Source of the DNA: Nitrospirales bacterium
Lineage (GTDB): Bacteria > Nitrospirota > Nitrospiria > Nitrospirales > UBA8639
DNA length: 64,000 nucleotides
Direction: 5' to 3'
NCBI GenBank assembly: GCA_965247845.1
Contig: OZ252040.1
Coordinates: 95,615 to 159,614 of the forward strand
The position numbers and the translations under genes were made by a program. The notes beneath the pieces are model-generated. The model made no database searches, was not told the origin of the DNA, and worked only from the letters and a program-made list of their open reading frames with translations. The first letter of the stretch is position 1; each line of letters starts with the position of its first letter. This document shows, piece after piece, positions 5,640 through 44,347 of this stretch.

Positions 5640-6378
5640 TTAATTCTTGTGTCCGTCGGTTTTTATGTGGCCCTCGGTTCCGGAACTCTTGCTTTTCTTA
5701 CATTCTTTAACTTGGAATAATCGCCGGAATGCTCCTTTTTGCCGCCATGGGACTTCATGCGTTTGTGCATTTTGTCCATCCGTGCTTGTTGTTCCTCGGT
5801 CAGCACGGCCACGGCGTCCCGCGGAGCTTTGATCGACGCCATGTGCAGTTTTGTCATCAAGCCATGTACCGTGTTCATTTGCGTCAATATCCGCAAGCTT
5901 GGTATCTGCAAGCTTGGCATTTTCGTTCCTCAGCAATACATTCTTCGCTATGTCCACGTCGGCCTTCATCCTGATCGGTCTTTCTTATAATTGATCTTGA
6001 GATCGCGAAGCTGTTGGACCTTCGTCCGTCAGACTCATCCCTTCTTGTTCTTCAAGATATGTTTGCAGAATTTCATGACTGCCTGACGTTCGTGCATGGC
6101 GCCGAAACCATGGTCGCCATGCCCTTTCTTAGCCCATTCCAGGTCCTGAAGCGCGCATTGAATGACGGCCTCCGCCGTGTCTCTTATGCATGCCGTCACG
6201 CTGCGAAGACCAGGAATGGTCCCCAGACCCTTTATGCCTGGAGGCGAAGTTTCGAATGCCTACTCTTCGATTCCCCATGCATGGGTCGGTTGGCAAAGGC
6301 CGGACCGGCAGTCAGTAGAAAGACAACGGCCAACAGGGAAATGAAGGGAAACGGGGAACGTGGTGTACAAAACCTCAT
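5640..6378 (-). pseudogene. Frameshifted paralogue of the LTxxQ (Spy/CpxP/ZraP-like) gene at 6796-7521
   Basis: Homology to the 241-aa protein is split over three frames: signal peptide MRFCTPRSPFPFISLLAVVFLLTAGPAFA (from 6378, AGGAGG RBS), MKADVDIAKNVLLRNENAKL and LMTKLHMASIKAPRDAVAVLTEEQQARMDKMHKRMKSHGG. There is a 2-nt deletion relative to the paralogue in the MSLT(E/D) codons. Confidence 0.75.
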
Positions 6379-7703: not shown

Positions 7704-8771
7704 TCACGTATTCCTGTCAAATAGTACCGTGTGGGTGGCAATGACTTTCAATTCCACCTTTGAGTCGAGAGGGAACAATTGGGTCGAGGCTTCGCTGCTG
7801 TGCACGAGATCGCCGGAAGCCAGGCGGATTCCGTAAATCGTCTCCGAGCCTCGAAACTGCCGGGATTCAACGGTTCCGTCTTTGTGATTGGTTCCACAAA
7901 TTTGAATGTCATCCGGTCGAATCATGACCACGACTTCAGGGCCGCCCTGGTAGCCGTTCGGCACCGGGAATGCGCCGAGTTGAGTCACCACGACAGAATC
8001 GTGAATGGTTCCGGGGATGAAGTCGGCGTGCCCCACAAACTCCGCGACAAAGGGCGAAACCGGAAGGTGGTACATGGTTTCGGGTGCTGCGAATTGTTCG
8101 AGTTTCCCGTTATTCAAGACGGCCACATAATCAGCCATGGCAAAGGCTTCTTCATGATCATGCGTGACGAGAACGGCGGTGGTTTGAGTTTTTTTCAACA
8201 AGTGCAGGAGTTCCATACGCATGCGGTAAGTCGTATCGGGATCCAGATTGCTGAACGGCTCGTCCAAAAGGAGCAGTACAGGTTGAGGGGCAAGGGCGCG
8301 TGCCAATGCCGCGCGTTGCTGTTGGCCGCCCGACAGCGAATGAGGGTATCGCCCGGCAAGTGCTGAAAGCCCGGTGAGAGACAGCATCTCGTCAATTCGG
8401 CCTCGACGGTTGTTCGCTGTTGCATGCGGCAACCCGAATCCCACGTTGTCCTGTACCGTCAAGTGAGGAAAGAGAGCATAGTCCTGAAAAACCATGCCGA
8501 CCCGCCGTTGTTCGGTTGGGACGTGCCGATCCGGCGTCGAGACGGTTTTACCGTTCAGCCTGATTTCGCCGGAGGCAACCGATTCAAACCCCGCGATAGC
8601 CCGAAGCGTTGTGGTCTTCCCGCATCCGGACGGCCCTAACAAACAAATGATGTCGCCTTTCTGCGCTGAAAAGGAAATGCCCTCCAGTGCCAAGGCGTCG
8701 GCTTCATACGAGCAGGCCACGTCCTTCAGCTCGAGCACAATGGGCGTATCGTTGGGAGGTCGTTGCGTCAT
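7704..8771 (-). CDS. ABC transporter ATP-binding protein, Fe(III)/polyamine importer type
   Basis: Walker A GPSGCGKTT, signature LSGGQQQR, Walker B LLLLDEP. Start placed at ATG 8771 (MTQRPP...); the upstream ORF extension lies inside a repeat element. Confidence 0.85.
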   Translation of the reverse strand: MTQRPPNDTPIVLELKDVACSYEADALALEGISFSAQKGDIICLLGPSGCGKTTTLRAIAGFESVASGEIRLNGKTVSTPDRHVPTEQRRVGMVFQDYALFPHLTVQDNVGFGLPHATANNRRGRIDEMLSLTGLSALAGRYPHSLSGGQQQRAALARALAPQPVLLLLDEPFSNLDPDTTYRMRMELLHLLKKTQTTAVLVTHDHEEAFAMADYVAVLNNGKLEQFAAPETMYHLPVSPFVAEFVGHADFIPGTIHDSVVVTQLGAFPVPNGYQGGPEVVVMIRPDDIQICGTNHKDGTVESRQFRGSETIYGIRLASGDLVHSSEASTQLFPLDSKVELKVIATHTVLFDRNT

Positions 8772-8783
8772 GCTAAATGAATG

Positions 8784-8840
8784 TGTAGGGCCGCATCTCA
8801 TGCGGCCAACTCCCAGGCGCCATGAGATGTCGCCGCTACA
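8784..8840. repeat. Palindromic repeat, family R3 (TGTAGGGCCGCATCTCATGCGGCC ... GCGCCATGAGATGTCGCCGCTACA)
   Basis: Two inverted copies of a ~24-nt hairpin motif. Related copies at 58495-58550, a half copy at 45756-45779 and a partial copy near 63241-63291. Confidence 0.7.
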
Positions 8841-8955
8841 AAGATATATGTTTACGGCTCAGAGCTTGTCGCCTGCCGAAGGATGACGTCCATGGGCACT
8901 CAGGAAGAGGCCCTAATCCATTTATGAGTAGCTTCTGGCATCTTGCGCGGCGCGG

Positions 8956-10575
8956 TTACGTCGGTTGTCGGTCTTTTTGCATCAATAGTAACACGACCGG
9001 AATGGTAATCACCACGATCAGTAAGGCCGGAGGCGCCGCTAATTGATACAGTTCCTCGCTGGCTTCAAGCCAAATTCTGACGGCGAGGGTATCGAATCCC
9101 ACGGGACGCAGCAGGAGTGAAGCCGGCAATTCCTTCATGCATTGGACAAACACTAAGATCCAGGCACTCAGAAACCCACCTCGCACTAACGGCAGGGTCA
9201 CGTGAAAAAAGGTTCGCAGGGATCGAGCCCCAAGGCTTCGCGCCGCTTCTTCGAGATTCGGCGTGAGCTGCTGAAGGGTGGCTTCCATGCCTTGCAGTGC
9301 TGCCGGGAGAAAATGGACCAAATAGGCCAAGAGCAAGACGAGCACCGTACCATACAGTTGTGGAATGGTGTGTGAGACCAAGACTAATACGGCGAGGGCG
9401 GCGACCGGACCTGGAAGCACATAGCCGGTATACGCCCCTTGCACACAAAAAGTACTGGTCCAGGTCTGATGGCGGCACGCTAAATAGGCGAGGGGAATTC
9501 CACAGATCACAGACACCGTGGCCGTGATACTCGAGAGCGAGACACTGTTCCACACGTATCCGATGAATTCATGAGAAATCTCACCGGCAGACGCGGCCTT
9601 AGCGGTCCATTGAATGAGCAGAAGCACCGGCAGGCCGAAGGCCGCTCCGAACACGAGAAGAAGATAGCCTGTAAACAGCAGAGCCGTGAAGGGACGGCAG
9701 GGTTGAGGAACCGGTTTTCGATACCGGCCGGTGGTTTGGTAAAACCGGCTCCGCTGTCGGAACCAACGTTCGCCGAACAGAAAGATAAATGCGCACGCGA
9801 CTAACACCAGACTCAAGCAGGCGGCTGCCGTGTTGTCGAATCGTCCGGTCATTTGCTGGTACACGGCATAGGTAAAAGTTTGAAAGCGCAACAGCGAAAC
9901 TGCGCCAAAATCAGAAGCGACGTAGAGAATCGCCAAGAAAAGTCCGGCGATCAGTGATGGGCGGATGAGCGGAAGCGATACTCGGAAGAACGTCGTCACT
10001 CGATTGGCTCCGGTCGCGCGGGCGACTTCTTCAAAGGAGATATTAAAATTTTTGAGAGCCGATCGAGCCAACAGATACACAAACGGAAACGTGTTCAACG
10101 CAAGAACGAGAACAGCGCCTGCGAAACTAAAAGGTGAAAACAAAAGAGAGTCTGTCCCGGCAATGGTTTGCCATACGTGTTCCAGCGTGCCCCCGCGTTT
10201 TAACAGGTAGGTATAGGTATAGGCCAGAACGTAGGAGGGGATGGACAAGGGCAAAATCAGTAACCAATCCCATATTCGGGACCCGAGAAAGGTATAACGA
10301 GTCAGGATCCAGGCGAGCGAGACTCCCAGGGTCAGATTCACGACCGCGACGCCAAGGGATAAGGAGAGCGTGTTGAAGAGTAATTCCGGGACCCGTGTGG
10401 TCCAGAGTCTTCGCCACACCGCCGGGTCTGCCGTTAGGGCCGAAAAGGCGATGTAGAGCAACGGCAGCATGAGCGCAAGGGCCAGGCAAAAGCCGAGCAG
10501 GACAAGCGGAGAAGGGAAACGAAAACGGAGCGATGACAGTGGGAGAAAAGGGTTAGCGGAGTCCAACGTCTTCAA
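8956..10575 (-). CDS. Iron(III) ABC transporter permease (two-domain, FbpB-like)
   Basis: 539 aa and highly hydrophobic, with duplicated permease loops FEEVARATGANRVTTFFRVSLPL and LEEAARSLGARSLRTFFHVTLPL. Confidence 0.85.
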   Translation of the reverse strand: MKTLDSANPFLPLSSLRFRFPSPLVLLGFCLALALMLPLLYIAFSALTADPAVWRRLWTTRVPELLFNTLSLSLGVAVVNLTLGVSLAWILTRYTFLGSRIWDWLLILPLSIPSYVLAYTYTYLLKRGGTLEHVWQTIAGTDSLLFSPFSFAGAVLVLALNTFPFVYLLARSALKNFNISFEEVARATGANRVTTFFRVSLPLIRPSLIAGLFLAILYVASDFGAVSLLRFQTFTYAVYQQMTGRFDNTAAACLSLVLVACAFIFLFGERWFRQRSRFYQTTGRYRKPVPQPCRPFTALLFTGYLLLVFGAAFGLPVLLLIQWTAKAASAGEISHEFIGYVWNSVSLSSITATVSVICGIPLAYLACRHQTWTSTFCVQGAYTGYVLPGPVAALAVLVLVSHTIPQLYGTVLVLLLAYLVHFLPAALQGMEATLQQLTPNLEEAARSLGARSLRTFFHVTLPLVRGGFLSAWILVFVQCMKELPASLLLRPVGFDTLAVRIWLEASEELYQLAAPPALLIVVITIPVVLLLMQKDRQPT

Positions 10576-11593
10576 TGACAGTCATCGTGGGATCGCGGAG
10601 TTGAGCTAAATGGCTTAAAGGAACACTGGCCACCTGAAAACTCTGAAGCGGCAGCAGTTCAGGCGCAGCCGTCACATGAGGATTCAGGGGATATTCTTTG
10701 TTCACATTCGCGAACATGCGTTGTCCTTTGGGAGAGATAAGAAATCGGATCAAGGCCTGAGCCTGCGCAAGGCGTTTGGTGTGCGCGGTGATGCCGATTC
10801 CTGCGGCATTGAGAATAATGCCCATGCCCTGATTCCCTTGATCGGTCAACAGCGGGGCAATCGGCGCATCGGGGTGTTGGTCCAGATGGCGGTTAATATA
10901 GTAATGATTGACCAGACCAACGGCTACTTCCCCGCGTGCCACGGCTGCCACAATTTGCCGATTTTTTCCATAGACAAATGACCCGGCATTGTCCTTTAAG
11001 CCTTGGAGGAACGTCGTGGTCACCTCATCTCCCTTCACCGCACGAATAACCGATACGCCGGTCTGCAAATAGACGCTGCCTGCGCTGGGGATCGCGATTT
11101 TGCCTTTCCATTTCGGGTCGGCGAGATCCAGAATAGAGGAGAGATCGCCGGGGTGGACCATGGTGGTGTTATAGACGATCACCCAAATTCGACCTGATAA
11201 GCCAATCCAACTATTGTCCGGTGCCCGGAATCGGCTGGGAATGCTTTCCTCAAGGTCAGGAATGGTACTGGTTTGGAGCAGCTGTAATTCACGCGCGCGT
11301 TCCAAGGTTCCGGCGTCATTGGTAATGAGCACGTCGGCCGGAGTTCGAGCCCCTTCCATCCGAAGCCGGTTGATCAACGCCGTGCTGTCCGCAGTCAGCA
11401 TTTGAATGCTGATGCCCGATTCGGCTTGAAACGCATCGAGTACCGGTTGAATGAGCCGTTCGGCTCGGCCGGAGTAGACCACCAGCGTGTCCCCGGCATA
11501 GCCCAAGGACGGGAGGGCCAGGGCTGCCACAAAGAACAAACAGACTATTCGAATGAGGATGATGAGACGATTGTGACGAATCCGTTGTCTCAA
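10553..11593 (-). CDS. Fe(III) ABC transporter substrate-binding protein
   Basis: Signal peptide RLIILIRIVCLFFVAALALPSLGYA followed by a solute-binding fold. Start taken as TTG 11593, overlapping the fur stop (TTGA). The ORF track's alternative GTG start is at 11644. Confidence 0.8.
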   Translation of the reverse strand: MRQRIRHNRLIILIRIVCLFFVAALALPSLGYAGDTLVVYSGRAERLIQPVLDAFQAESGISIQMLTADSTALINRLRMEGARTPADVLITNDAGTLERARELQLLQTSTIPDLEESIPSRFRAPDNSWIGLSGRIWVIVYNTTMVHPGDLSSILDLADPKWKGKIAIPSAGSVYLQTGVSVIRAVKGDEVTTTFLQGLKDNAGSFVYGKNRQIVAAVARGEVAVGLVNHYYINRHLDQHPDAPIAPLLTDQGNQGMGIILNAAGIGITAHTKRLAQAQALIRFLISPKGQRMFANVNKEYPLNPHVTAAPELLPLQSFQVASVPLSHLAQLRDPTMTVIEDVGLR

Positions 11594-33619: not shown

Positions 33620-33644
33620 CTAAGTGATCGGAGAAACTCCACGC

Positions 33645-33980
33645 ATGCATATTCACGTCAATGGTGACTCACGTAACGTGCGTGAGGAGATGAATGTGAC
33701 GGGGCTGCTCCAAGATTTGCAACTGAATGTTGAACAAGTGGCGGTGGAAATCAATCTTGAAATTCTCGATAGGCAGGACTTTGATGCCCGAATTCTGCAA
33801 GAAGGGGACCGCATTGAAATTATGAGCTTTATCGGAGGTGGTGCCCCTTCCCCTGTGGCATTCCCGCCGTCTGGTAGCGGGAATCCAGCGTGTTTTTTCT
33901 GCGCGTGTCCCCCGCCCGAAATTAAAAAGATGAGGAAGCCATCGAGCATTGTGGTTCCAAGAGATGGAGAGAGGCCATGA
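33645..33980 (+). CDS. thiS: Sulfur carrier protein ThiS with a 45-aa extension beyond the Gly-Gly end
   Basis: A 66-aa ThiS-like core MHIHVNGDS...EIMSFIGGG. No stop follows; the frame continues [19 protein letters not shown]... to TGA 33978-33980, overlapping the thiG ATG. Confidence 0.8.
33857..33886. repeat. Hairpin repeat family R1 inside the thiS extension
   Basis: GGCATTCCCGCCGTCTGGTAGCGGGAATCC (stem ATTCCCGC/GCGGGAAT). Relatives at 12858, 56399 and a variant near 5531. Confidence 0.75.
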
Positions 33981-34750
33981 GTGACGATCGTTTGACCATA
34001 GCTGGGCGAGAGTTTCGATCCCGTTTGTGGGTCGGAACGGGAAAGTATAAGGACTTTATTGAGACGCAGAAAGCCATTGAAATGTCTGGCGCGGATGTCG
34101 TCACCGTTGCCGTACGTCGAGTCAATATCACGGACAGAAATTCCGAGAATCTTCTTGATTATCTTGATCCGAAGCAATACACCATTCTTCCCAATACCGC
34201 AGGGTGCTACACGGTGGACGATGCGGTGCGCTATGCTCGGTTGGCTCGAGCAGCCGGAGTATCGGATTTGGTGAAGCTCGAGGTGATCGGCGATGAGCGG
34301 ACCTTATTTCCTGATACCGCCGGACTCATTGAAGCCGCAAAAATATTGATTAAGGAAGGATTCGTGGTGTTGCCTTATACCAACGACGATCCTATCGTAG
34401 CACAAAAGCTTGTCGATATCGGATGCCCGGCGGTCATGCCTTTAGCGGCCCCTATTGGTTCTGGATTAGGAATACGCAATCCCTACAATTTGAAAATCAT
34501 CCTTGAAACCGTGAACGTGCCGGTGATTGTCGATGCGGGAGTGGGAACCGCCTCCGATGCGGCGTTGGCTATGGAATACGGGGCAGATGCGGTATTGATG
34601 AATACCGCGATCGCAGGGGCCCAAGAACCCATTGTCATGGCTGAGGCCATGAAGTATGCGGTAGAGGCTGGACGGTTAGCGTATAAAGCCGGGCGCATTC
34701 CTCGAAAACTCTATGCCACCGCGAGTAGTCCGATCGAAGGCATGTTGTAA
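33977..34750 (+). CDS. thiG: Thiazole synthase ThiG
   Basis: LWVGTGKY..., [25 protein letters not shown] motifs. Confidence 0.95.
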
Positions 34751-34922
34751 CCTGATGCTGAAAACGCTCACGCCGCATCCATCGATTGTCACGCATCACA
34801 TCACGTTCTCTTGCCTTGTTGGACGGTCGTCTTCTGTTCTGGCCTGATCACCAGGGGGTAAGGGTTACGGAAATCTCTACATGTGAAAAGAACGTCTTCT
34901 TTTACGACCGTCGAGGCCTTCC

Positions 34923-35570
34923 GTGTTTGTGACGACGAGTCGTCTTCCGCCTTTGTATGTCGTCACCGACCGGCGCCAAACCGGAGAGGATAGTTTTCTG
35001 CAGATCCTCGGAGACATCATCCCTGAACAAGGCATGATGGTACAAATTCGGGAACGAGATCTTGGATCCCGAGAGCTTCTACGGTTTGTGAAGGCCATTC
35101 ACCTGATGGCTCATCCCTTTCGTGTTCCGTGTTTGATCAATGACCGCGTGGACCTGGTCCTTGCCACTCAGGCCGCAGGCGTGCACCTTCGCTCAGACAG
35201 CATGCCCGTCAAAGAGGCCAGGAAATGTTTGGGCGCTGACTATCTTATTGGGCAGTCGGTCCATTCTGCCCAAGAGGCGCTCCAAAGCGAGAAAGAAGGT
35301 GCGGACTTTGTTGTGCTCGGGCCGGTGTATGAGACACCCTCAAAACGGGAGTATGCCCCCCCGTTAGGTGTCCACGCCATTCGCGAAGCCAGTCGGCACT
35401 GTACAATTCCCGTATATGCGATTGGTGGGATGACGCCTTCTCGTGTGGAGAACGTGATGGAGGCCGGCGCCGTTGGCGTTGCGGTCATTTCTTCAATTTT
35501 CCAAGCCTCATCTCCACGCGAGGCTGTGACGGCGTATTCTACGCAACTGCGCAAATGGAGCCCACGGTAA
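34923..35570 (+). CDS. thiE: Thiamine-phosphate synthase ThiE
   Basis: LYVVTDRR, VQIRERD, INDRVDL, AIGGM motifs; GTG start. Confidence 0.9.
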   Translation: MFVTTSRLPPLYVVTDRRQTGEDSFLQILGDIIPEQGMMVQIRERDLGSRELLRFVKAIHLMAHPFRVPCLINDRVDLVLATQAAGVHLRSDSMPVKEARKCLGADYLIGQSVHSAQEALQSEKEGADFVVLGPVYETPSKREYAPPLGVHAIREASRHCTIPVYAIGGMTPSRVENVMEAGAVGVAVISSIFQASSPREAVTAYSTQLRKWSPR

Positions 35571-35586
35571 AAGGGTCCACTTTATA

Positions 35587-35616
35587 TTGACCCTTTCCGA
35601 AAACGAGTGCTAGAAT
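35587..35616 (+). promoter_or_regulatory. Candidate sigma-70 promoter of the proteasome operon
   Basis: TTGACC (35587-35592), 18-nt spacer, TAGAAT (35611-35616). Confidence 0.5.
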
Positions 35617-35758
35617 TTCTTTTACAGGAGTCCCCGAGAGGGAACGACAGGCTCATTTGGGTTTCTCCTTATCAATACAAGGGTTTCAGAGGTGGAGAAA
35701 ATAATTGGAGCCTTTTGCCTGTCGTTCTTTTTTTGTGATGGAACAGGGGGAAGATTTT

Positions 35759-37438
35759 ATGGGATTGAGAAAACACGAAGACTATACTCGGGAGATCGAG
35801 AAACTTCGCGGAGAACTCCAATCCTTGGAGAACGAAATGCGGCATTTGTACGAAACCCGCATGAAATTGCAGCAATCGCAAAAACAAAATGAACGGTTGA
35901 CGGCCAGCCTCCAAGAAGCCAAAACCCAAATTGAAAGCCTCCGCACGGAAATCGCCAAACTCACGGCCCCGCCGTCGGCGTATGCGCTTTTTTGCAGTCT
36001 GAACGATGATTGCAGCGCCAACGTCTATGTCTCAGGCAGAAAAATGCGCGTCAGCGTGCATAGTTCGGTTGCGAGTGCGACTCTGCGAAAAGGACAAGAA
36101 GTGATTTTGAATGAAGCCTTGAATATTATCGAAGCGCGTGCCTTTGACCCTCAAGGACAAGTGGTGAAGTTAAAAGATCAGCTTGATGAGATACGGGTTC
36201 TGATTCAGTTGCATCATGATGAAGAGCGAATCGTCGAGTTGGGTGAGCCGTTACTCCATGAGCATCTCAGCGTGGGCGACCATCTTCTCTATGATGCCCG
36301 GTCGGGATATGTCATTGAGAAAATCCCCAAGGCCGAAATCGAAGAGTTGGTGATAGAAGAAGTGCCGGATGTGCAATATGCGGATGTCGGGGGGTTGACG
36401 AAAGAAGTGGAGCAGGTGACGGATGCCGTGGAATTACCCTTTTTGTACCCTGATCTTTTCAGGGAGCATCGCCTGACCCCGCCAAAGGGCATTCTGTTGT
36501 ATGGGCCTCCAGGGTGTGGAAAGACGATGATCGCGAAGGCCGTGGCGAATTCTATTTCACAAAAAATGCGACATTTATCCGGCAAAGAAATGCGAAGCTA
36601 CTTCCTGCATGTGAAGGGCCCTGAACTGTTGAATAAATATGTGGGCGAAACGGAACGGTACATCCGGGAAGTATTCGCCAAAGCTCGAGACAAGGCGGCA
36701 ACCGGTAATCCGGTGGTCGTGTTTTTTGACGAGATGGACGCGTTGTTCCGTACGCGGGGCTCCGGGATTTCTTCCGATATTGAGTCCACGATCGTTCCGC
36801 AGTTTTTGGCTGAAATTGACGGGGTCGAGAAGCTCAAAAATGTGATCGTCATCGGAGCGAGCAATCGGCAAGATCTCATCGATCCAGCGGTCTTGCGAAC
36901 AGGGCGGTTGGATGTGAAGGTCAAAATTCCCAGACCGGATCAACGCAGTGCTCGCGAGATTTTCGCCAAATATCTCACCAGCGATCTGCCGTTTGCCAAA
37001 GAGGAACTTGATCGGCATGCGCAGGATCGTCAGGCGGTGGTCTCGCACCTTCTCGAGACGACGGTGGAAGCGATGTATGCCATGTCGGAAGACAATAAGT
37101 TTCTGGAAGTGACGTATGCCAATGGAGAAAAAGAAATCCTCTACTTTAAAGACTTTTCCAGTGGCGCTCTGATCGAAGGGGTGGTCTCACGAGCGAAAAA
37201 ATTTGCGGTGAAGCGAGCCATTAACACGGGTGAAAAAGGCTTGAAAGAAGAAGACCTTTTATGGGCTATTCGGGACGAATTTAAGGCGCATGAAGATCTG
37301 CCCAATACCACGAATCCCGATGATTGGGCCCGCATCGCCGGGAAAAAAGGCGAAAAGATTATCCACGTTCGAACCCTAACCCCTGGCTCGGAAGCAACAC
37401 GCGAAATTGAAACCGTGAGTGCCGGGCATTACTTTTAA
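35759..37438 (+). CDS. arc: Proteasome-associated AAA ATPase (ARC/Mpa)
   Basis: N-terminal coiled coil, OB region, Walker A GPPGCGKT, Walker B VVFFDEMD, and C-terminal ...SAGHYF (penultimate Tyr as in Mpa). Start is ATG 35759 or 35738; the ORF track gives 35705. Confidence 0.9.
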   Translation: MGLRKHEDYTREIEKLRGELQSLENEMRHLYETRMKLQQSQKQNERLTASLQEAKTQIESLRTEIAKLTAPPSAYALFCSLNDDCSANVYVSGRKMRVSVHSSVASATLRKGQEVILNEALNIIEARAFDPQGQVVKLKDQLDEIRVLIQLHHDEERIVELGEPLLHEHLSVGDHLLYDARSGYVIEKIPKAEIEELVIEEVPDVQYADVGGLTKEVEQVTDAVELPFLYPDLFREHRLTPPKGILLYGPPGCGKTMIAKAVANSISQKMRHLSGKEMRSYFLHVKGPELLNKYVGETERYIREVFAKARDKAATGNPVVVFFDEMDALFRTRGSGISSDIESTIVPQFLAEIDGVEKLKNVIVIGASNRQDLIDPAVLRTGRLDVKVKIPRPDQRSAREIFAKYLTSDLPFAKEELDRHAQDRQAVVSHLLETTVEAMYAMSEDNKFLEVTYANGEKEILYFKDFSSGALIEGVVSRAKKFAVKRAINTGEKGLKEEDLLWAIRDEFKAHEDLPNTTNPDDWARIAGKKGEKIIHVRTLTPGSEATREIETVSAGHYF

Positions 37439-37468
37439 TGCTCTTGCTCACGGCGGAATGAGGAGCCC

Positions 37469-38944
37469 TTGCAGCGCATAATTGGGACAGAAACCGAGTT
37501 TGGTGTTGCCTCGCGCCATGTCCACACATCTGATCCCGTTGAGAATTCCCTCCAACTCATCAGTTATTACCCTTCTCTCATGACCCCCCAAGCTATTTGG
37601 GACTACGAGAACGAAAACCCTCTGCGAGATGCTCGAGGGTTTGAAGTAGAGGGTGACCGCGAATGGCCGGGCCCTGAGTATAATCGTGCGCTCAATAAGT
37701 TGTTGGCGAATGCCGGTCGACTGTATGTCGATGGAGCGCATCCCGAGTATTCGACGCCGGAATGTAGTACGGCTCGAGAACTGGTCGCGTATGAACGGGC
37801 CGGTGAACTCATCGCCGCCAAATGCTTGGAAGCCATGAATCGTACGGCAGGGGGAGACCGGTATGTGCTGTACAAAAATAACTCTGATGGAAAAGGGAAT
37901 AGTTACGGGTACCATGAAAATTATTTGATGGCCCGTTCAGTGCCATTCGACACGATTCTTCAGGTGTTGTTGCCGTTCTTTGTCTCGCGTCCCATCTTTG
38001 CGGGGTCAGGGAAAGTCGGATCTGAAAATGGGGCCGCGCGCACGAAGTATCAAATCTCTCAACGCGCGGACTTTTTTGAATGCGTGGCGGATCTCAACAC
38101 CATGGTCAAACGACCCCTTGTCAATACACGTGATGAGCCTCATGCGGACAGCGCGCGGTTTCGACGGTTACATGTCATTGTCGGTGACGCCAATATGGCG
38201 GAACTGTCCACGTATTTAAAGGTCGGGACTACAGCGATTGTGACGCATATGTTGGACGAGGGCGCCGACATCCCCTCATGTGTGCTGGAAAATCCCGTGG
38301 AAGCCATCAAGATCGTCTCACGTGATCTCACCATGAAGGCCGATCTGAAATTGTCCAAAGGAGGGGTGACCAATGCGCTGGCCATCCAACGCGCCTATCT
38401 CCGGGCCGCACATGATTTTTATGCCTGTCGCGAGTTGTCGCCCGCGACGAAGGATATTTTGGTGAGGTGGGAAACCGTCCTGAATAAACTCGAGCAGGAT
38501 CCGAGGCAATTGGTTGCGGAACTTGATTGGGTCGCGAAACAACAAATGATCGAGTCGTACATGGACCGAAAAGGCTGTGGATGGGATGATCCGCGTGTCG
38601 CCTTGATGGACTTGCAATACCATGATATTCGGCCGGAAAAAGGGCTGTATTATACGCTCGAACGGAGCCGCCGTATCGAGCGGTTGCTGGATGATGAAGA
38701 GATTGCCAGCGCAGAGTTTCATGCGCCACGGGGCACTCGAGCCTATTTCCGCGCTGCCTGTCTTCAGAAATTTCCCCACCAAATCTATGGGGCCAGTTGG
38801 ACATCGGTGCTCTTCGACGTGGGAGATCTCTCCGTCAAACGGGTTCCGTTAATGGATCCATGGAGGGGGACGCAAGATTTGACCAATGAGTTGTTGGAGG
38901 GCGTGGAGACGGCGCAACAACTCCTGGATCGGTTATCGGCTTAA
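37469..38944 (+). CDS. dop: Pup deamidase/depupylase Dop
   Basis: TTG start gives (M)QRIIGTETEFGV. WDYENENPLRDARGF matches the Dop-specific segment of mycobacterial Dop. Confidence 0.9.
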   Translation: MQRIIGTETEFGVASRHVHTSDPVENSLQLISYYPSLMTPQAIWDYENENPLRDARGFEVEGDREWPGPEYNRALNKLLANAGRLYVDGAHPEYSTPECSTARELVAYERAGELIAAKCLEAMNRTAGGDRYVLYKNNSDGKGNSYGYHENYLMARSVPFDTILQVLLPFFVSRPIFAGSGKVGSENGAARTKYQISQRADFFECVADLNTMVKRPLVNTRDEPHADSARFRRLHVIVGDANMAELSTYLKVGTTAIVTHMLDEGADIPSCVLENPVEAIKIVSRDLTMKADLKLSKGGVTNALAIQRAYLRAAHDFYACRELSPATKDILVRWETVLNKLEQDPRQLVAELDWVAKQQMIESYMDRKGCGWDDPRVALMDLQYHDIRPEKGLYYTLERSRRIERLLDDEEIASAEFHAPRGTRAYFRAACLQKFPHQIYGASWTSVLFDVGDLSVKRVPLMDPWRGTQDLTNELLEGVETAQQLLDRLSA

Positions 38945-38967
38945 ACGGAGAATGTAAAAACATCGGT

Positions 38968-39819
38968 ATGAGGTTGGTTGGTATGGAATCGATCGTGTCC
39001 AAAATGCCCGTGAGTCAGTGTTCGAGCTTTTTTGATTTTATTCATCAAACTCGGCCCGAACTGACACCCGCCGTGCGGTGGGGGACCGGAGGCCACCCAT
39101 CGGTGTCGGTGGATGAGATGCAACGGAATTTCTTGTCGCAGCTCTCTCACGGTACGACCGTGCTGGCCATTAAATACGATAAGGGCGTGGTGATCGTCGG
39201 CGATCGACGTGCAATCGAAGGGTATCAAGTCGCTTCGCGGCGCATGGAGAAGGTCTTTAAAACCGATAGCCATTCCGCCATCGCCATTGCGGGTGCTGCG
39301 GGACCGTGCCTGGAAATGGCCAAGTTGTTTGGTATTGAACTGGAACATTATGAAAAACTGGATAGAGTGTCGTTATCCTGCGAAGGAAAGGCAAATCGTT
39401 TGGGGCAAATGGTGAAAGCGAATTTGCCTATGGTCATGCAAGGGTTGGTCGTGATTCCGCTGTTTGTGGGTTTTGATTTTAAACAACGACAAGGTCGGAT
39501 TTTTAAATATGATGTTACGGGTGGGAAATATGAAGAAACGGAGTATCACTCGGTAGGGTCTGGAGGAAAGGATGCCCGGGTGACCATCAAAGAACGGTTT
39601 CGCAAAAATCTGTCTCAACAAGACGTGATCACCCTCGCGCTTCAGGCGCTCTTGAGCGCCGCAGAAGAGGACGTGGGTACCGGGGGACCCGATGTCTTAC
39701 GAGGCATTTATCCCACCATCAAAGTCGTCGATGCCCAAGGCGTGCAGGATGTTGAAGATGCTGAGGTGGCGTCCCTGTACGATCAGGTCGCTCGCTCGAG
39801 ATCTGAACAGGAATCCTAA
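38968..39819 (+). CDS. prcB: Proteasome subunit beta PrcB (with propeptide)
   Basis: ~60-aa propeptide, then the HG/TTVLAIKYDKGVVIVGDRRA catalytic Thr context. Confidence 0.9.
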   Translation: MRLVGMESIVSKMPVSQCSSFFDFIHQTRPELTPAVRWGTGGHPSVSVDEMQRNFLSQLSHGTTVLAIKYDKGVVIVGDRRAIEGYQVASRRMEKVFKTDSHSAIAIAGAAGPCLEMAKLFGIELEHYEKLDRVSLSCEGKANRLGQMVKANLPMVMQGLVVIPLFVGFDFKQRQGRIFKYDVTGGKYEETEYHSVGSGGKDARVTIKERFRKNLSQQDVITLALQALLSAAEEDVGTGGPDVLRGIYPTIKVVDAQGVQDVEDAEVASLYDQVARSRSEQES

Positions 39820-40502
39820 TGTCTCTTCCGTTTTATGTTTCCCCCGAACAATTAATGCAGGATAAGGCGGAGTATGCCAAAAAAGGCATTGCCAAGGGAC
39901 GGTCGATTGTTGCCATCGAATACCAGGATGGCGTGCTCTTTATGGCGGATAATCCAAGCGATTCGTTGTTCAAGATCTCCGAAATTTACGACAATATTGC
40001 CTTTTCAGGAGCAGGGAGATACAGCGAATTTGAAAGTTTGCGAAAAGCAGGCATTCAACATGCAGATTTGAAAGGGTTTATGTATAGTCGTGAAGATGTC
40101 ACGGCTCGTTCGTTGGCAAATGGCTATTCGCAAACCTTGGGCACGATTTTTAGTCAGGAACTGAAACCCTTCGAAGTAGAAATTCTGTTAGCCCAAATTG
40201 GAGACAGTCCTGAGAATACGGAATTGTATCGCATCGCGTTCGATGGGACGATTGTTCACGAAAAGCAATTTGTGGCAATTGGGGGACGTTCAGACACCTT
40301 AGTCTCTGCCCTGCGCACGGTGGGTTCGGAAGACGTCTTAGATCTGAAAGCTGCCCTCACCCAGTGCATGAAAGCCCTCGAGACCGCGACGGATCAGAAA
40401 ATTTCACTTCATGCGCTCGAAGTTGCGCTACTCGATCGGACCCGTACCGGGCGAAAGTTTCGTCGGGTTAGCGTAGAAGAAGCCAGCGCCCTTCTTTCAT
40501 AA
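39819..40502 (+). CDS. prcA: Proteasome subunit alpha PrcA
   Basis: MSLPFYVSPEQLMQDKAEYAKKGIAKGRSIVAI... parallels mycobacterial PrcA. TAATG overlap with prcB. Confidence 0.9.
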   Translation: MSLPFYVSPEQLMQDKAEYAKKGIAKGRSIVAIEYQDGVLFMADNPSDSLFKISEIYDNIAFSGAGRYSEFESLRKAGIQHADLKGFMYSREDVTARSLANGYSQTLGTIFSQELKPFEVEILLAQIGDSPENTELYRIAFDGTIVHEKQFVAIGGRSDTLVSALRTVGSEDVLDLKAALTQCMKALETATDQKISLHALEVALLDRTRTGRKFRRVSVEEASALLS

Positions 40503-40605
40503 TCTCCCCTTTTTGGTTGGCGTCTCTTCCATCCGGTATTCAGTTGAAGCGGGGGAGGGAGAGGTGTATGCTCCATCTACGTCGCGTCTAGGCGAAGATG
40601 AGCAT

Positions 40606-41979
40606 ATGAAACGAATTTTTGGACTCGAGTGTGAATACGGCCTGACCTTTTCGCCCAACGGTCGGGTGTATCTGCCCATTGAAAAAATCCTGGGATATAT
40701 TTTTGAAGGACTGATTCCGAATAGCTGGCCATCCAATGCCTTCCTCACGAATGGGGCCAGATTTTATCAAGACACCGGATGCCATCCTGAATATTCGACT
40801 CCAGAGTGCGATGATATTTTTGAGTTGGTGGTTCATGAAAAGGCCGGAGAGCGGATTCTCGAATCCTGTTTGCCCGCAGCCGAAGAACGCCTCCGGGAAG
40901 AAGGGCTCGCCGGCGATATCTATATTTTTAAAAACAACACTGATTCCTTGGGGAATACCTATGGGTCCCATGAAAATTTTCTGATGCAGCGTGACGTTGA
41001 TTTTTGGAAAGTGGCTGAACAGCTCATTCCATTTTTTGTGACGCGACAAATTTTTTCAGGCTCCGGTAAAGTTCTCAAGGTCTCGGGCAAACCGCACTAT
41101 TTCATTTCTCAGCGAGCCCAGCATATTCACGAAAAAACCTCTTCCTCCACGACGTCGTCCCGAAGCATTATCAACACCCGTGATGAGCCGCATGCCGATG
41201 CCGAACGGTATCGACGCCTCCACATCATTCTGGGGGATTCGAATATGTCGGAGTTTGCCATTTACCTGAAGGTCGGCACGGCGGATCTGGTGCTTTCCAT
41301 GATCGAAGAAGGGCACTTTCTCAAGGGAATTGAATTAGAAGATCCCGTCAAGGCCATCAGAGAAATTTCTCGAGACCCCACGTTGAAGAAAAAGGTGAAG
41401 TTGGATGATGGGCGGGAGTGTTCCGCCTTGGAAATTCAACGGATCTATTTGGAAAAAGCCTCGGAGTTTCTCCACGCCCGACCCTATGATAAAGTGCTGG
41501 CTGATGTCTTAACAGAGTGGGAACGCGTATTGAATGCGTTAGAGGATGACCCCATGCAGTTGGTGCGAGAGATCGATTGGGTGACGAAACAATGGGTGAT
41601 CCAATCGTATATCGACAGAAAAGGGTGCGGGTGGGATGATCCGCGAGTGGCGATGATGGATCTGCAATATCACGATGTGAACCGGAAGCGGGGCCTCTAT
41701 TATATTTTAGAGGCGCATGAGAAAACGGTGAAGATGGTGGATGAGCAAGCCATTGAACGCGCAATGTCCGTGCCGCCCCAGTCTACCCGCGCCAAGGTTC
41801 GAGGAGATTTTATTCGATTTGCCCGAGCCAAAAATCGATCCTACACGGTGGATTGGACCTATTTGAAATTAAATGGATATTGGGAAGAAACAATCTTGTG
41901 TATGGATCCCTTTTGTGCGTTCAATCGGCGGGTTGATGAATTGCTGGCTCAAGTATCTGCCGCTCCCCTGTATACATGA
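40606..41979 (+). CDS. pafA: Pup--protein ligase PafA
   Basis: MKRIFGLECEYG..., NGARFYQDTGCHPEYSTPEC, IYIFKNNTDSLGNTYGSHENF parallel PafA. Start at ATG 40606; the ORF track gives 40513. Confidence 0.9.
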   Translation: MKRIFGLECEYGLTFSPNGRVYLPIEKILGYIFEGLIPNSWPSNAFLTNGARFYQDTGCHPEYSTPECDDIFELVVHEKAGERILESCLPAAEERLREEGLAGDIYIFKNNTDSLGNTYGSHENFLMQRDVDFWKVAEQLIPFFVTRQIFSGSGKVLKVSGKPHYFISQRAQHIHEKTSSSTTSSRSIINTRDEPHADAERYRRLHIILGDSNMSEFAIYLKVGTADLVLSMIEEGHFLKGIELEDPVKAIREISRDPTLKKKVKLDDGRECSALEIQRIYLEKASEFLHARPYDKVLADVLTEWERVLNALEDDPMQLVREIDWVTKQWVIQSYIDRKGCGWDDPRVAMMDLQYHDVNRKRGLYYILEAHEKTVKMVDEQAIERAMSVPPQSTRAKVRGDFIRFARAKNRSYTVDWTYLKLNGYWEETILCMDPFCAFNRRVDELLAQVSAAPLYT

Positions 41980-42905
41980 AATTGCCTTCCCTTTGGTTTG
42001 CTTCACACACACATATCGTCACTCGCCCGTGGCTCATAGCGCTGGTGTTGGTTCTGGCGAGCATGTTCCCGGTCAATCTTTTTTTCACGGAAGGGCCTCA
42101 GCATTCCGTGGGGGCCGATGGACAATTCAGTGGCAAACAAGGGGAAGTGTTGCTTGTGACGGTCCCTGTCTATGACCGGCCGGATCGAGTCGCAGGGAAA
42201 TTTTTACAACGAACGCTGACGTTTTTCCCTATCAAGGAACAGGTGTATGCCGGACTGTTGGGGTTGGATATGCAAGATCACCCCGGCCAGCATGAACTCA
42301 CGATTGAGGTCGTCTATCCTCAGCGGACAGAACATCGTAGTCTGTCGGTGCTGGTGATGAAGACAGAGTACCCCGTGCAACGGTTGACCTTACCCTCCCA
42401 AATGGTGGATCTCGATCAGGAAACCCTTGTCCGGGTCAAGACCGAATCCAGCGCTGTCCACCAAGCTTTTGGCAGTGTTGTGCCGCATCCACTGTGGAAG
42501 GGAGGATTTCTTGAGCCGGTTCAGGGGAAAATATCCGGGCGATTCGGCAGTCGACGGTTCATTAATGGGCAACCCAGAAACCCTCATAGTGGTGAAGACA
42601 TCGCGGCTCCCGAAGGAACTCCCGTGTTAGCCATGAATGACGGGATGGTGCGACTCACCATGGATCACTTTTTTTCGGGAAAAGGGGTGATCGTGGACCA
42701 TGGGCTTGGCCTCTTCTCCATGTATTTTCACTTATCCAGCGTGGACGTGGAGCAAGACCAAGCCGTTAAGAAAGGTCAGGCGATTGGAAAAGTCGGCTCC
42801 ACGGGACGGGCGACCGGCCCGCATCTTCATTGGGGGGTGCGACTCAATGGCTCACGGGTTGATCCTTACTCGCTGCTTCATCTGACGTTTGGCGAACAAT
42901 CGTAA
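41976..42905 (+). CDS. Membrane-anchored M23 family metallopeptidase
   Basis: ATGA overlap with the pafA stop. TM anchor WLIALVLVLASMF. M23 blocks HSGEDIAAPEGTPV and GSTGRATGPHLHWGV. Confidence 0.85.
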   Translation: MKLPSLWFASHTHIVTRPWLIALVLVLASMFPVNLFFTEGPQHSVGADGQFSGKQGEVLLVTVPVYDRPDRVAGKFLQRTLTFFPIKEQVYAGLLGLDMQDHPGQHELTIEVVYPQRTEHRSLSVLVMKTEYPVQRLTLPSQMVDLDQETLVRVKTESSAVHQAFGSVVPHPLWKGGFLEPVQGKISGRFGSRRFINGQPRNPHSGEDIAAPEGTPVLAMNDGMVRLTMDHFFSGKGVIVDHGLGLFSMYFHLSSVDVEQDQAVKKGQAIGKVGSTGRATGPHLHWGVRLNGSRVDPYSLLHLTFGEQS

Positions 42906-42932
42906 CTTCAGATGTTTCTCTGAAACCTATCC

Positions 42933-43472
42933 ATGAACAATATCTGTGTCTTTTGTGGCTCCAGTACTGGGATGGGGCATCGTTATGTTGAGATGGCTCG
43001 GCTATTGGGGAAAGAGCTTGCCGCGCGTGGGCTGGGATTAGTCTATGGTGCGGGCAATATGGGGTTGATGGAAGTGGTGGCTGAAGCCTGTCTTGCCGAA
43101 GGCGGTCGGGTTCTTGGCGTCATTCCTCAGTTTATGGCGGACAAACAATTGGCTCGGCACGACTTATCCGCTCTTCATGTGGTTGGGTCAATGCATGAGC
43201 GTAAAGCCCTCATGGCGGATTTGGCTGATGCCTTTATTGGGCTGCCTGGCGGATACGGCACGCTAGAAGAATTTTGTGAGATGATCACCTGGCGACAGCT
43301 TCAGTTACATCATAAACCCTGTGGGCTCTTAAACGTCGATGGATTTTTCGATTCACTCCTGACTTTTTGGGATCATCAGACACGGGAAGGGTTTCTGGCC
43401 CCTGAAAATCGAGGGTTGGTTCTTGTTGCCGATGATCCGGCGATGTTGCTCGATCTTCTGCATGAAGCCTGA
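42933..43472 (+). CDS. LOG family protein (TIGR00730-type nucleotide phosphoribohydrolase)
   Basis: VFCGSS, GLVYGAGNMGLM, PGGYGTLEE motifs. Confidence 0.85.
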   Translation: MNNICVFCGSSTGMGHRYVEMARLLGKELAARGLGLVYGAGNMGLMEVVAEACLAEGGRVLGVIPQFMADKQLARHDLSALHVVGSMHERKALMADLADAFIGLPGGYGTLEEFCEMITWRQLQLHHKPCGLLNVDGFFDSLLTFWDHQTREGFLAPENRGLVLVADDPAMLLDLLHEA

Positions 43473-43543
43473 AGCCCGGGGAGGGGGAAATCCGGTGAAT
43501 TGGTGAAAAACGTTGACCGATTCACCGGCACGGTTCAGGTTCC

Positions 43544-44347
43544 TTAGTAGGCCGGTGGTCGAGAAAGTGGTTCGCTCGCAACCAGTTCCACTGCGCGCAG
43601 GTTATCAAATGCGAATTTCCCACTCCCGGTAGTCAGGAGTCCGATTTGCCCTGTCTTGAAGGTGGAATCATAAACCGAGAGGAAGAATTGGTTGTCGAAC
43701 GAAATTTCAAAAAATTCTTTGCTCACAATCGTATTTCTCTGGACTCGCAGGAAATGCCATGGCGTTCTTTTTCTCGGAATGACCTCATGCTCCTCGATCA
43801 GAGTGGGTTTCCCATCGGAAAAACGATAGGCCTTGACCATATTGCTTGCCGGATAAATGAGGATGGCATAGAAGTTGTCGAGATCTTGCAGCCCCAACAC
43901 CAAGCCGGCCGCCGAAGTTGGTGTGCCGAGCTTAGAAAGGATGCCTACCGTGAAGTCGACATATTCCATACGAATCGTTTCATTGATAAGAAGTTGATAG
44001 CAACTGGGATCTGAGCAGGAGGTCGATTGTAACAAGACATGGGTCCGACTTGGAGCGTCGCCGTCTGTAATAACTGTCCATTCCCCAGGGTACCCGTGCC
44101 CCAAGGTATGAGAGGCAAACCCGGGAGGAAGAACCGAATCCAGATTTTTTTCAAAATTCCATTCCTGAAAAATTGGAGGAGTATGTCGTAAGACGGCTCG
44201 AGGAAGTTCCTTCAAAGGCCCGGCGTCTTCTGCGAAAAGATCAGGAATTCCTGTACAAAGGACCAACACGAGGGCTGCCAAGCCGAGGATGAGGCCACGA
44301 GAACGAATGCAGGAGGCTGCGGTCTTAAAATGAGCTGTTTTGTGCAT
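43544..44347 (-). CDS. Secreted hypothetical protein (possible jelly-roll/DUF1080-like)
   Basis: Start placed at ATG 44347 (signal LILGLAALVLVLCTGIPDLFA). The C-terminal GQIGLLTTGSGKFAFDNLRAVEL resembles lectin-fold DUF1080 ends. Tentative. Confidence 0.45.
   Translation of the reverse strand: MHKTAHFKTAASCIRSRGLILGLAALVLVLCTGIPDLFAEDAGPLKELPRAVLRHTPPIFQEWNFEKNLDSVLPPGFASHTLGHGYPGEWTVITDGDAPSRTHVLLQSTSCSDPSCYQLLINETIRMEYVDFTVGILSKLGTPTSAAGLVLGLQDLDNFYAILIYPASNMVKAYRFSDGKPTLIEEHEVIPRKRTPWHFLRVQRNTIVSKEFFEISFDNQFFLSVYDSTFKTGQIGLLTTGSGKFAFDNLRAVELVASEPLSRPPAY

Follow-up and report, generated by a model that had tools for sequence, protein, structure and literature searches.

A Nitrospirales Pup-proteasome operon with a tag gene probably encoded elsewhere in the genome

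A 64-kb stretch of DNA from a Nitrospirales bacterium (contig OZ252040.1 of assembly GCA_965247845.1, positions 95,615 to 159,614; the whole of this stretch is hereafter called the window) carries the genes arc/mpa, dop, prcB, prcA and pafA of the Pup-proteasome system, and neither of the two known tag genes (that is, pup and UBact). We consider it probable that this is an ordinary Pup-proteasome operon whose tag is canonical Pup encoded elsewhere in the genome; pup would be missing from the operon because the order Nitrospirales keeps it as a stand-alone gene at another site. For the window genome itself, such a stand-alone pup is predicted from its relatives.

The initial annotation described the five genes as intact and tightly packed, which coordinates, Pfam and NCBIfam equivalogs bear out: 30 nt separate arc/mpa from dop, 23 nt dop from prcB and 103 nt prcA from pafA, and prcB and prcA overlap at TAATG. 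All five proteins exceed the curated NCBIfam equivalog cut-offs (Arc/Mpa, TIGR03689, 738.8 bits for a cut-off of 504.75; Dop, TIGR03688, 538.1 for 492.3; PrcB, TIGR03690, 287.6 for 191.9; PrcA, TIGR03691, 301.6 for 139.05; and PafA, which passes narrowly, TIGR03686, 556.8 for 551.3), and Pfam agrees on the identities. The Arc/Mpa product combines a coiled coil at its N terminus with two OB domains and an AAA module (Pfam Prot_ATP_ID_OB_N, Prot_ATP_ID_OB_C and AAA) and ends in GHYF. In the PrcB translation a propeptide of some 60 aa comes first, and its ...SHG is followed by the active-site Thr that opens TTVLAIKY. Dop matches Pfam Pup_ligase at 557 bits and its database homologues bear the name Dop, while PafA is matched over its full length by the Corynebacterium glutamicum PafA structures 4B0T/4BJR (E of about 1e-110).

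A tag gene is locally absent, with no pup and no UBact in the 64 kb. We built one hidden Markov model (HMM) from 120 UBact family members and another from six Nitrospirota Pups and the Mycobacterium tuberculosis Pup, and searched both, with filters off, against the window's complete set of 2736 six-frame segments; neither found a match (best E 0.67 for UBact and 4.8 for Pup), whereas in control loci the same models detect Pup or UBact at E 1e-14 to 1e-35 (1e-33 to 1e-34 for the UBact model in the UBact loci L081 and L082). Likewise, stop-to-stop segments with a G[QE] tail resembling that of Pup or UBact are absent from all six frames of the window, and the G[QE]-ending open reading frames (ORFs) picked up by regular expression and tblastn in the window and its relatives were discarded as chance matches. 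The search thus upholds the earlier reading that no modifier gene lies in or beside the operon, that the overlapping plus-strand ORFs are not Pup-like and that nothing ending in G-[QE] is encoded at 35571-35758, a stretch that is non-coding. The window operon accordingly has neither the pup gene that usually lies between dop and prcB, a position that is not essential to function, nor, at the same place, one for UBact (NF033388/PF20513; R[TS]G[EQ] at the C terminus).

Pup-less operons across the Nitrospirales

To place the window operon, we compared 80 related loci from species-representative genomes, among which we distinguish an actinobacterial-like operon (L1) and a UBact-bearing operon (L2), named after the two Leptospirillum copies. 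Of the species representatives, the closest (L001-L005, Dop identity 80-89%) are metagenome-assembled genomes (MAGs) that are named 'Nitrospirales bacterium' and are marine or associated with sponges. In about 45 Nitrospirales/Nitrospiraceae loci, including that of Nitrospira moscoviensis, the dop-prcB gap measures about 100 nt or less, and none of these pup-less loci has a Pup or UBact HMM match within 10 kb on either side. The pup-less operon is therefore common to the whole order Nitrospirales and no peculiarity of the window genome. The window belongs with the pup-less L1 operons of Nitrospira and Nitrospiraceae (for example, N. moscoviensis L034, STL-NOB2 L043 and SMAG_U9012 L007), which have the same architecture with a short junction and a PafA 77-81% identical to that of the window; in that group a stand-alone pup near relA is documented, whereas for the window genome it is predicted.

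A pup directly after dop, the position that the initial annotation gives for actinobacteria, is found in the actinobacterial loci and in six deep-branching Nitrospirota loci (L041, L044-L046, L048 and L053). The latter, together with Leptospirillum L1, are orthologous to the window locus and have the same flanks where covered (Dop 53-61% identical; PafA 61-73% in L041, L045 and L048), but they encode a Pup of 64-67 aa with a KGG[EQ] end right after dop, where the window has 23 nt. With or without pup, the common order in Nitrospirota is thiS-thiG-thiE-mpa-dop-(pup)-prcB-prcA-pafA-M23: thiS-thiG-thiE precedes mpa in most mapped Nitrospirota loci, the pup-bearing ones included, and of the 16 mapped loci, 11 have an M23 peptidase gene after pafA (5 have a LOG-family gene). 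Given that the synteny is the same with and without pup, the simplest history is that an ancestor of Nitrospirales lost pup cleanly from this site. As for individual flanks, M23 and LOG genes follow pafA in the window, L002, L005, L030, L037 and L039, and an M23 gene is also found after pafA in L041 and L045, two deep-branching loci with pup.

The actinobacterial system (M. tuberculosis mpa, dop-pup-prcB-prcA and pafA) has the same five proteins at equivalog level, the same order mpa-dop-prcB-prcA-pafA and a Dop that is 46-49% identical, but differs in that the window is without pup between dop and prcB and holds its genes in one compact operon flanked by thiSGE on one side and by M23 and LOG genes on the other. 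Outside the phylum, L1 operons of Rokubacteria and Methylomirabilota (NC10) are pup-less like that of the window (L056; in the shorter L049, at the dop-prcB junction) and have pup elsewhere (beside dcd or moaB or, in L147, upstream of mpa), yet they belong to other phyla, with other pup landing sites and a Dop only 47-55% identical.

In three of the closest relatives (L001-L003) the dop-prcB gap is longer, 245-287 nt, and we considered and rejected a pup relic there, as these gaps are filled by copies of a repeat (CCCCTCCTTACAAAGGAGGGG...). The element is palindromic, with the core CCCCTCCTTACAAAGGAGGGG / CCTCCCCTTTGTAAGGGGAGG, and lies at 11470-11760 in L001, 5878-6120 in L002 and 11470-11750 in L003; at up to 3 mismatches the core occurs six times in L001, twice in L002, three times in L003 and not at all in the window. 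The L002 gap also has an ORF with an 'RTGE' end, but this ORF falls within the element, is not conserved and was likewise set aside. In L001 (13274-15330), the pafA match after prcA is limited to 270 nt (98.8% identity), and in L005 (13051-17844) about 4.8 kb are inserted between prcA and pafA.

Stand-alone pup genes in related genomes

A full-library search with one stand-alone Pup returned 2178 representatives. The clusters of two Pup representatives are named 'ubiquitin-like protein Pup' for Nitrospira sp. Nam74, a Nitrospiraceae bacterium and a Nitrospirales bacterium; public annotation thus already names stand-alone pup genes correctly. The gene context of these is hppA-pup-(118-aa gene)-recJ-relA-DUF192, with no dop or prcB nearby, and one hppA-pup-recJ-relA instance lies on a 5.17-Mb chromosome; on a contig of 48% guanine-cytosine (GC) content the context is pup-relA-DUF192-tuf-nusG-rplKAJL-rpoB. 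The stand-alone Pups of the order end in KGG[EQ] and pass TIGR03687, and those of the Nitrospira type have an N-terminal M-x-KQE-[KR] in common with the in-operon Nitrospirota Pups. Both halves of the proposed arrangement occur in assembly DATEPD01 (the soil MAG SMAG_U9012), which has the pup-less L1 operon L007 (DATEPD010000288.1) and, on DATEPD010000363.1, a divergent stand-alone Pup (P0455, locus L172).

Sister phyla offer a precedent. In a scan of JGI sequences with the Nitrospirota Pup profile, the matches listed were mostly pup genes of high GC that have neither dop nor prcB within 6 kb; among them, stand-alone pup genes named for Rokubacteria and Methylomirabilota (or NC10) are abundant, with no Nitrospira case, and the L1 loci L056 (Rokubacteria) and L049 (Methylomirabilota) are pup-less. 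The further landing sites are moaB-pup in the NC10-like group and dcd-pup in Rokubacteria (L147 571-3982; L108, L117, L124, L144; L090, L135, L138, L149), and in L147 pup lies about 600 nt upstream of mpa-dop. That unlinked pup genes sit at different landing sites suggests that pup has left the dop-prcB junction more than once.

On this basis, we suggest that an ancestor of Nitrospirales lost pup from between dop and prcB but retained the gene, on its own, at another chromosomal site; in the relatives this site is next to relA, typically as hppA-pup-recJ-relA-DUF192. By analogy with the mycobacterial system, PafA would ligate the C-terminal Glu of this unlinked acidic Pup to substrate lysines, Dop would remove Pup (and deamidate it first if it ends in GGQ), and the coiled coil of Mpa/ARC would capture Pup and feed the substrates into the PrcAB 20S core.

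The Pup searches also turned up genes of other kinds. A phage-like 174-kb JGI contig of 38% GC (L107, Ga0070741_10000343), with a run of small same-strand ORFs of which two have strong PHROG matches, contains a canonical Pup ORF with a GG[EQ] end at 6001-6189, and 19 IMG/VR contigs of up to 296 kb (L176-L194) hold Pup homologues with canonical GG[EQ] ends, one family of which occurs on several contigs of 43-46% GC. No mpa, dop, prcB, prcA or pafA lies within 3 kb on either side of pup on the IMG/VR contigs, or within 6 kb on L107; Pup is thus possibly also encoded by phage. Two further ORFs, of 188 aa (P0424) and 157 aa (P0434), each join two or three stretches that resemble Pup and are either tandem 'poly-Pup' genes or fused calls.

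Ligase type and alternative explanations

Because we found no published list of PafA Pup-contact residues in open-access texts, lineage-discriminating and charge-differential alignment columns were used in their place, and the window PafA was scored against 23 PafAs from canonical-Pup-encoding lineages, 31 from pup-less Nitrospirales and 40 of the L2 type. At the 38 discriminating columns (that is, those where conservation among the Pup users is at least 90% and the L2 type has another conserved residue), the window PafA has the Pup-type residue in 37 and the L2-type residue in none, and at 35 of the 38 the Pup-type residue is present in all 31 pup-less PafAs. Of the positions conserved in both ligase types, the window PafA keeps 99 of 103. 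Across 62 charge-differential columns the pup-less PafAs lie near the Pup users (mean difference 0.28) and far from the L2 type (1.02); they keep a series of conserved Lys/Arg that the L2-type PafA is without; the net charge is about -21 in the L2 type versus about -7. The acidic signature of the L2-type PafA is accordingly missing from the window PafA, and the Pup-type signature and retained basic residues suggest a ligase suited to canonical acidic Pup.

All five operon genes are under strong constraint, with ratios of nonsynonymous to synonymous substitution rates (dN/dS) of 0.03-0.10 within the window's own clade: 0.04-0.06 for arc/mpa (against L002 and L005), 0.07 for dop and 0.026-0.033 for pafA, the most constrained gene of the operon, whose values come near that of thiG (0.019). 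Such low values across the five genes indicate that the enzymes are in use.

Several points weigh against an unlinked canonical Pup as the tag. The data are the 64-kb window, in which no pup from the window's own genome is seen, and no stand-alone pup is tied to the clade closest to it (L001-L005). How L170 (GC 48%), the nearest marine-like case, relates to that clade is uncertain, and the contigs behind the candidates P0426, P0433 and P0418 are one of 29 kb whose affiliation is uncertain, one of 518 bp from a metagenome and a long-read one of poor quality. The coexistence of a pup-less operon and a stand-alone pup in one genome is known from a single MAG and hence depends on binning. Finally, the discriminating positions of PafA are lineage signatures, not proven Pup contacts.

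The first alternative is that UBact is borrowed in trans from a paralogous L2 operon, the L1 enzymes having switched to it, or come to share it, after the loss of pup. Nitrospira indeed has a second complete operon, mpa-dop-UBact-prcB-prcA-pafA (as judged from the UBact search and the context of two loci), where the UBact gene sits between dop and prcB and its product has an RTG[EQ] end, in agreement with the end and neighbourhood given in the initial annotation. The two operons coexist in Nitrospira (for example, L043, pup-less L1, and L081, UBact-bearing, on one 3.16-Mb contig of STL-NOB2), the Dop and UBact of N. bockiana lie on contigs of the same size, and two full proteasome-operon copies were described for Leptospirillum in 2012 (PMC3511204). 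The L2 operon, present in Nitrospirota and other Gram-negative phyla, has the same gene set and order as the window but differs in its UBact gene after dop, its strongly acidic PafA and its other signature residues; identity to the window proteins is 29-41% over best matches (32-34% for PafA). Against borrowing, the L1 PafA has shifted toward the L2 type at none of the 38 positions and keeps its basic residues and its charge, the two tails are opposite in charge (UBact basic, LLKRMRKVDPKQAERYRQRTGE; Pup acidic, DEIDDVLEENAEEF...), and a canonical stand-alone pup exists in the same order. A homologue search with the L2-type PafA of L082 found no window-clade chromosome, at least among the best 120 matches, which break off on a plateau of 65% identity. 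We thus regard borrowed UBact as improbable. The L2 operon of L082 itself (8464-11031; ERZ25068762, a 2.83-Mb contig of a 48.6%-GC Nitrospirales) has dop split into 248 + 237 aa and prcB into 137 + 121 aa, which is either a long-read indel error or a decaying operon.

A second alternative, which we hold to be quite improbable, is that the reduced sponge/marine lineage of Nitrospirales has lost both pup and UBact and yet keeps the five genes under strong purifying selection, with PafA and Dop acting on a different, unrecognised substrate or tag. Still less probable, in our view, is a genome with no Pup-family modifier at all, in which the ARC-20S complex degrades untagged proteins and PafA and Dop serve another substrate or are on their way to being lost. 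The empty 64 kb would fit such a loss, as would the disturbed locus of the closest relatives (the pafA remnant match in L001, the insertion in L005 and the repeats in L001-L003) and the small genomes of the clade (2.1-3.2 Mb), but the dN/dS of pafA and dop and the retention of nearly all positions common to both ligase types argue for a retained specific function, and we know of no lineage that bears PafA and Dop without Pup. An unrecognised tag of neither the Pup nor the UBact kind, encoded elsewhere and used by the ligase/deligase pair, has the local absence of known tags as its sole support and is very improbable in our view, given that the signature positions of the ligase are invariant between Pup-encoding and pup-less lineages and that a simpler explanation is documented in relatives. 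The initial annotation had left the choice between a modifier encoded elsewhere and an unrecognised tag; comparative evidence favours the former, and the recognisable pup in the order together with the unchanged Pup type of the ligase speaks against the latter. The comparison of synteny that it had proposed gave a pup-less locus in Nitrospirales and dop-pup-prcB in deep Nitrospirota.

Operon features, flanking genes and implications

The positions of the operon genes and their neighbours are collected in Table 1. The 188-nt interval between thiE and arc/mpa holds a promoter-like site that, as a consensus match alone, has 10 of 12 sigma-70-like matches, the top score within 35400-43600; an Rfam search of the window gave no match. 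The window ThiS homologue has 45 further residues past ...FIGGG, overlapping thiG, and the tails of ThiS in relatives, which are not conserved, range from 0 residues (L002) to more than 20 (L030 and L034). ThiS function requires a free GG end; such extended tails may therefore need trimming, or the annotation may mislead.

Table 1 Features of the Pup-proteasome operon and its flanks (positions within the window)
Feature	Position	Strand	Remarks
thiS-thiG-thiE upstream block	33624-35570	+	thiS 33624-33980, thiG 33977-34750, thiE 34923-35570; Pfam ThiG, TMP-TENI
Promoter-like site TTGACC-18 nt-TAGAAT	35587-35616	+	TG-extended; in the thiE-arc/mpa interval (35571-35758); consensus match alone
arc/mpa (proteasomal AAA+ ATPase)	35759-37438	+	ORF open from 35705, ATG at 35759
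dop (depupylase/deamidase)	37469-38944	+	TTG start; Pfam and NCBIfam
dop-prcB junction, empty	38945-38967	+	23 nt; pup site in actinobacteria and deep-branching Nitrospirota
prcB (20S beta subunit)	38968-39819	+	Pfam Proteasome domain; TIGR03690
prcA (20S alpha subunit)	39819-40502	+	TAATG overlap with prcB; TIGR03691
pafA (Pup-protein ligase, apparently of the canonical acidic-Pup type)	40606-41979	+	TIGR03686; structure-sequence match
M23 peptidase	41976-42905	+	4-nt overlap with pafA; Pfam Peptidase_M23
LOG-family gene	42933-43472	+	Pfam Lysine_decarbox/LOG

In terms of biology the point is modest; a literature search found no paper describing the relocation of pup. For annotation, the 'missing' pup of Nitrospirales operons would be neither a gap nor a sign of a new tag, and the gene should be sought near relA/recJ. 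Nitrospirales appear to use a canonical acidic Pup whose gene is not linked to the operon, and many of them also carry the basic-UBact system, which would give two differently charged tagging pathways per cell. The position of pup beside the stringent-response gene relA could, in addition, allow the supply of the tag to be regulated apart from that of the enzymes.

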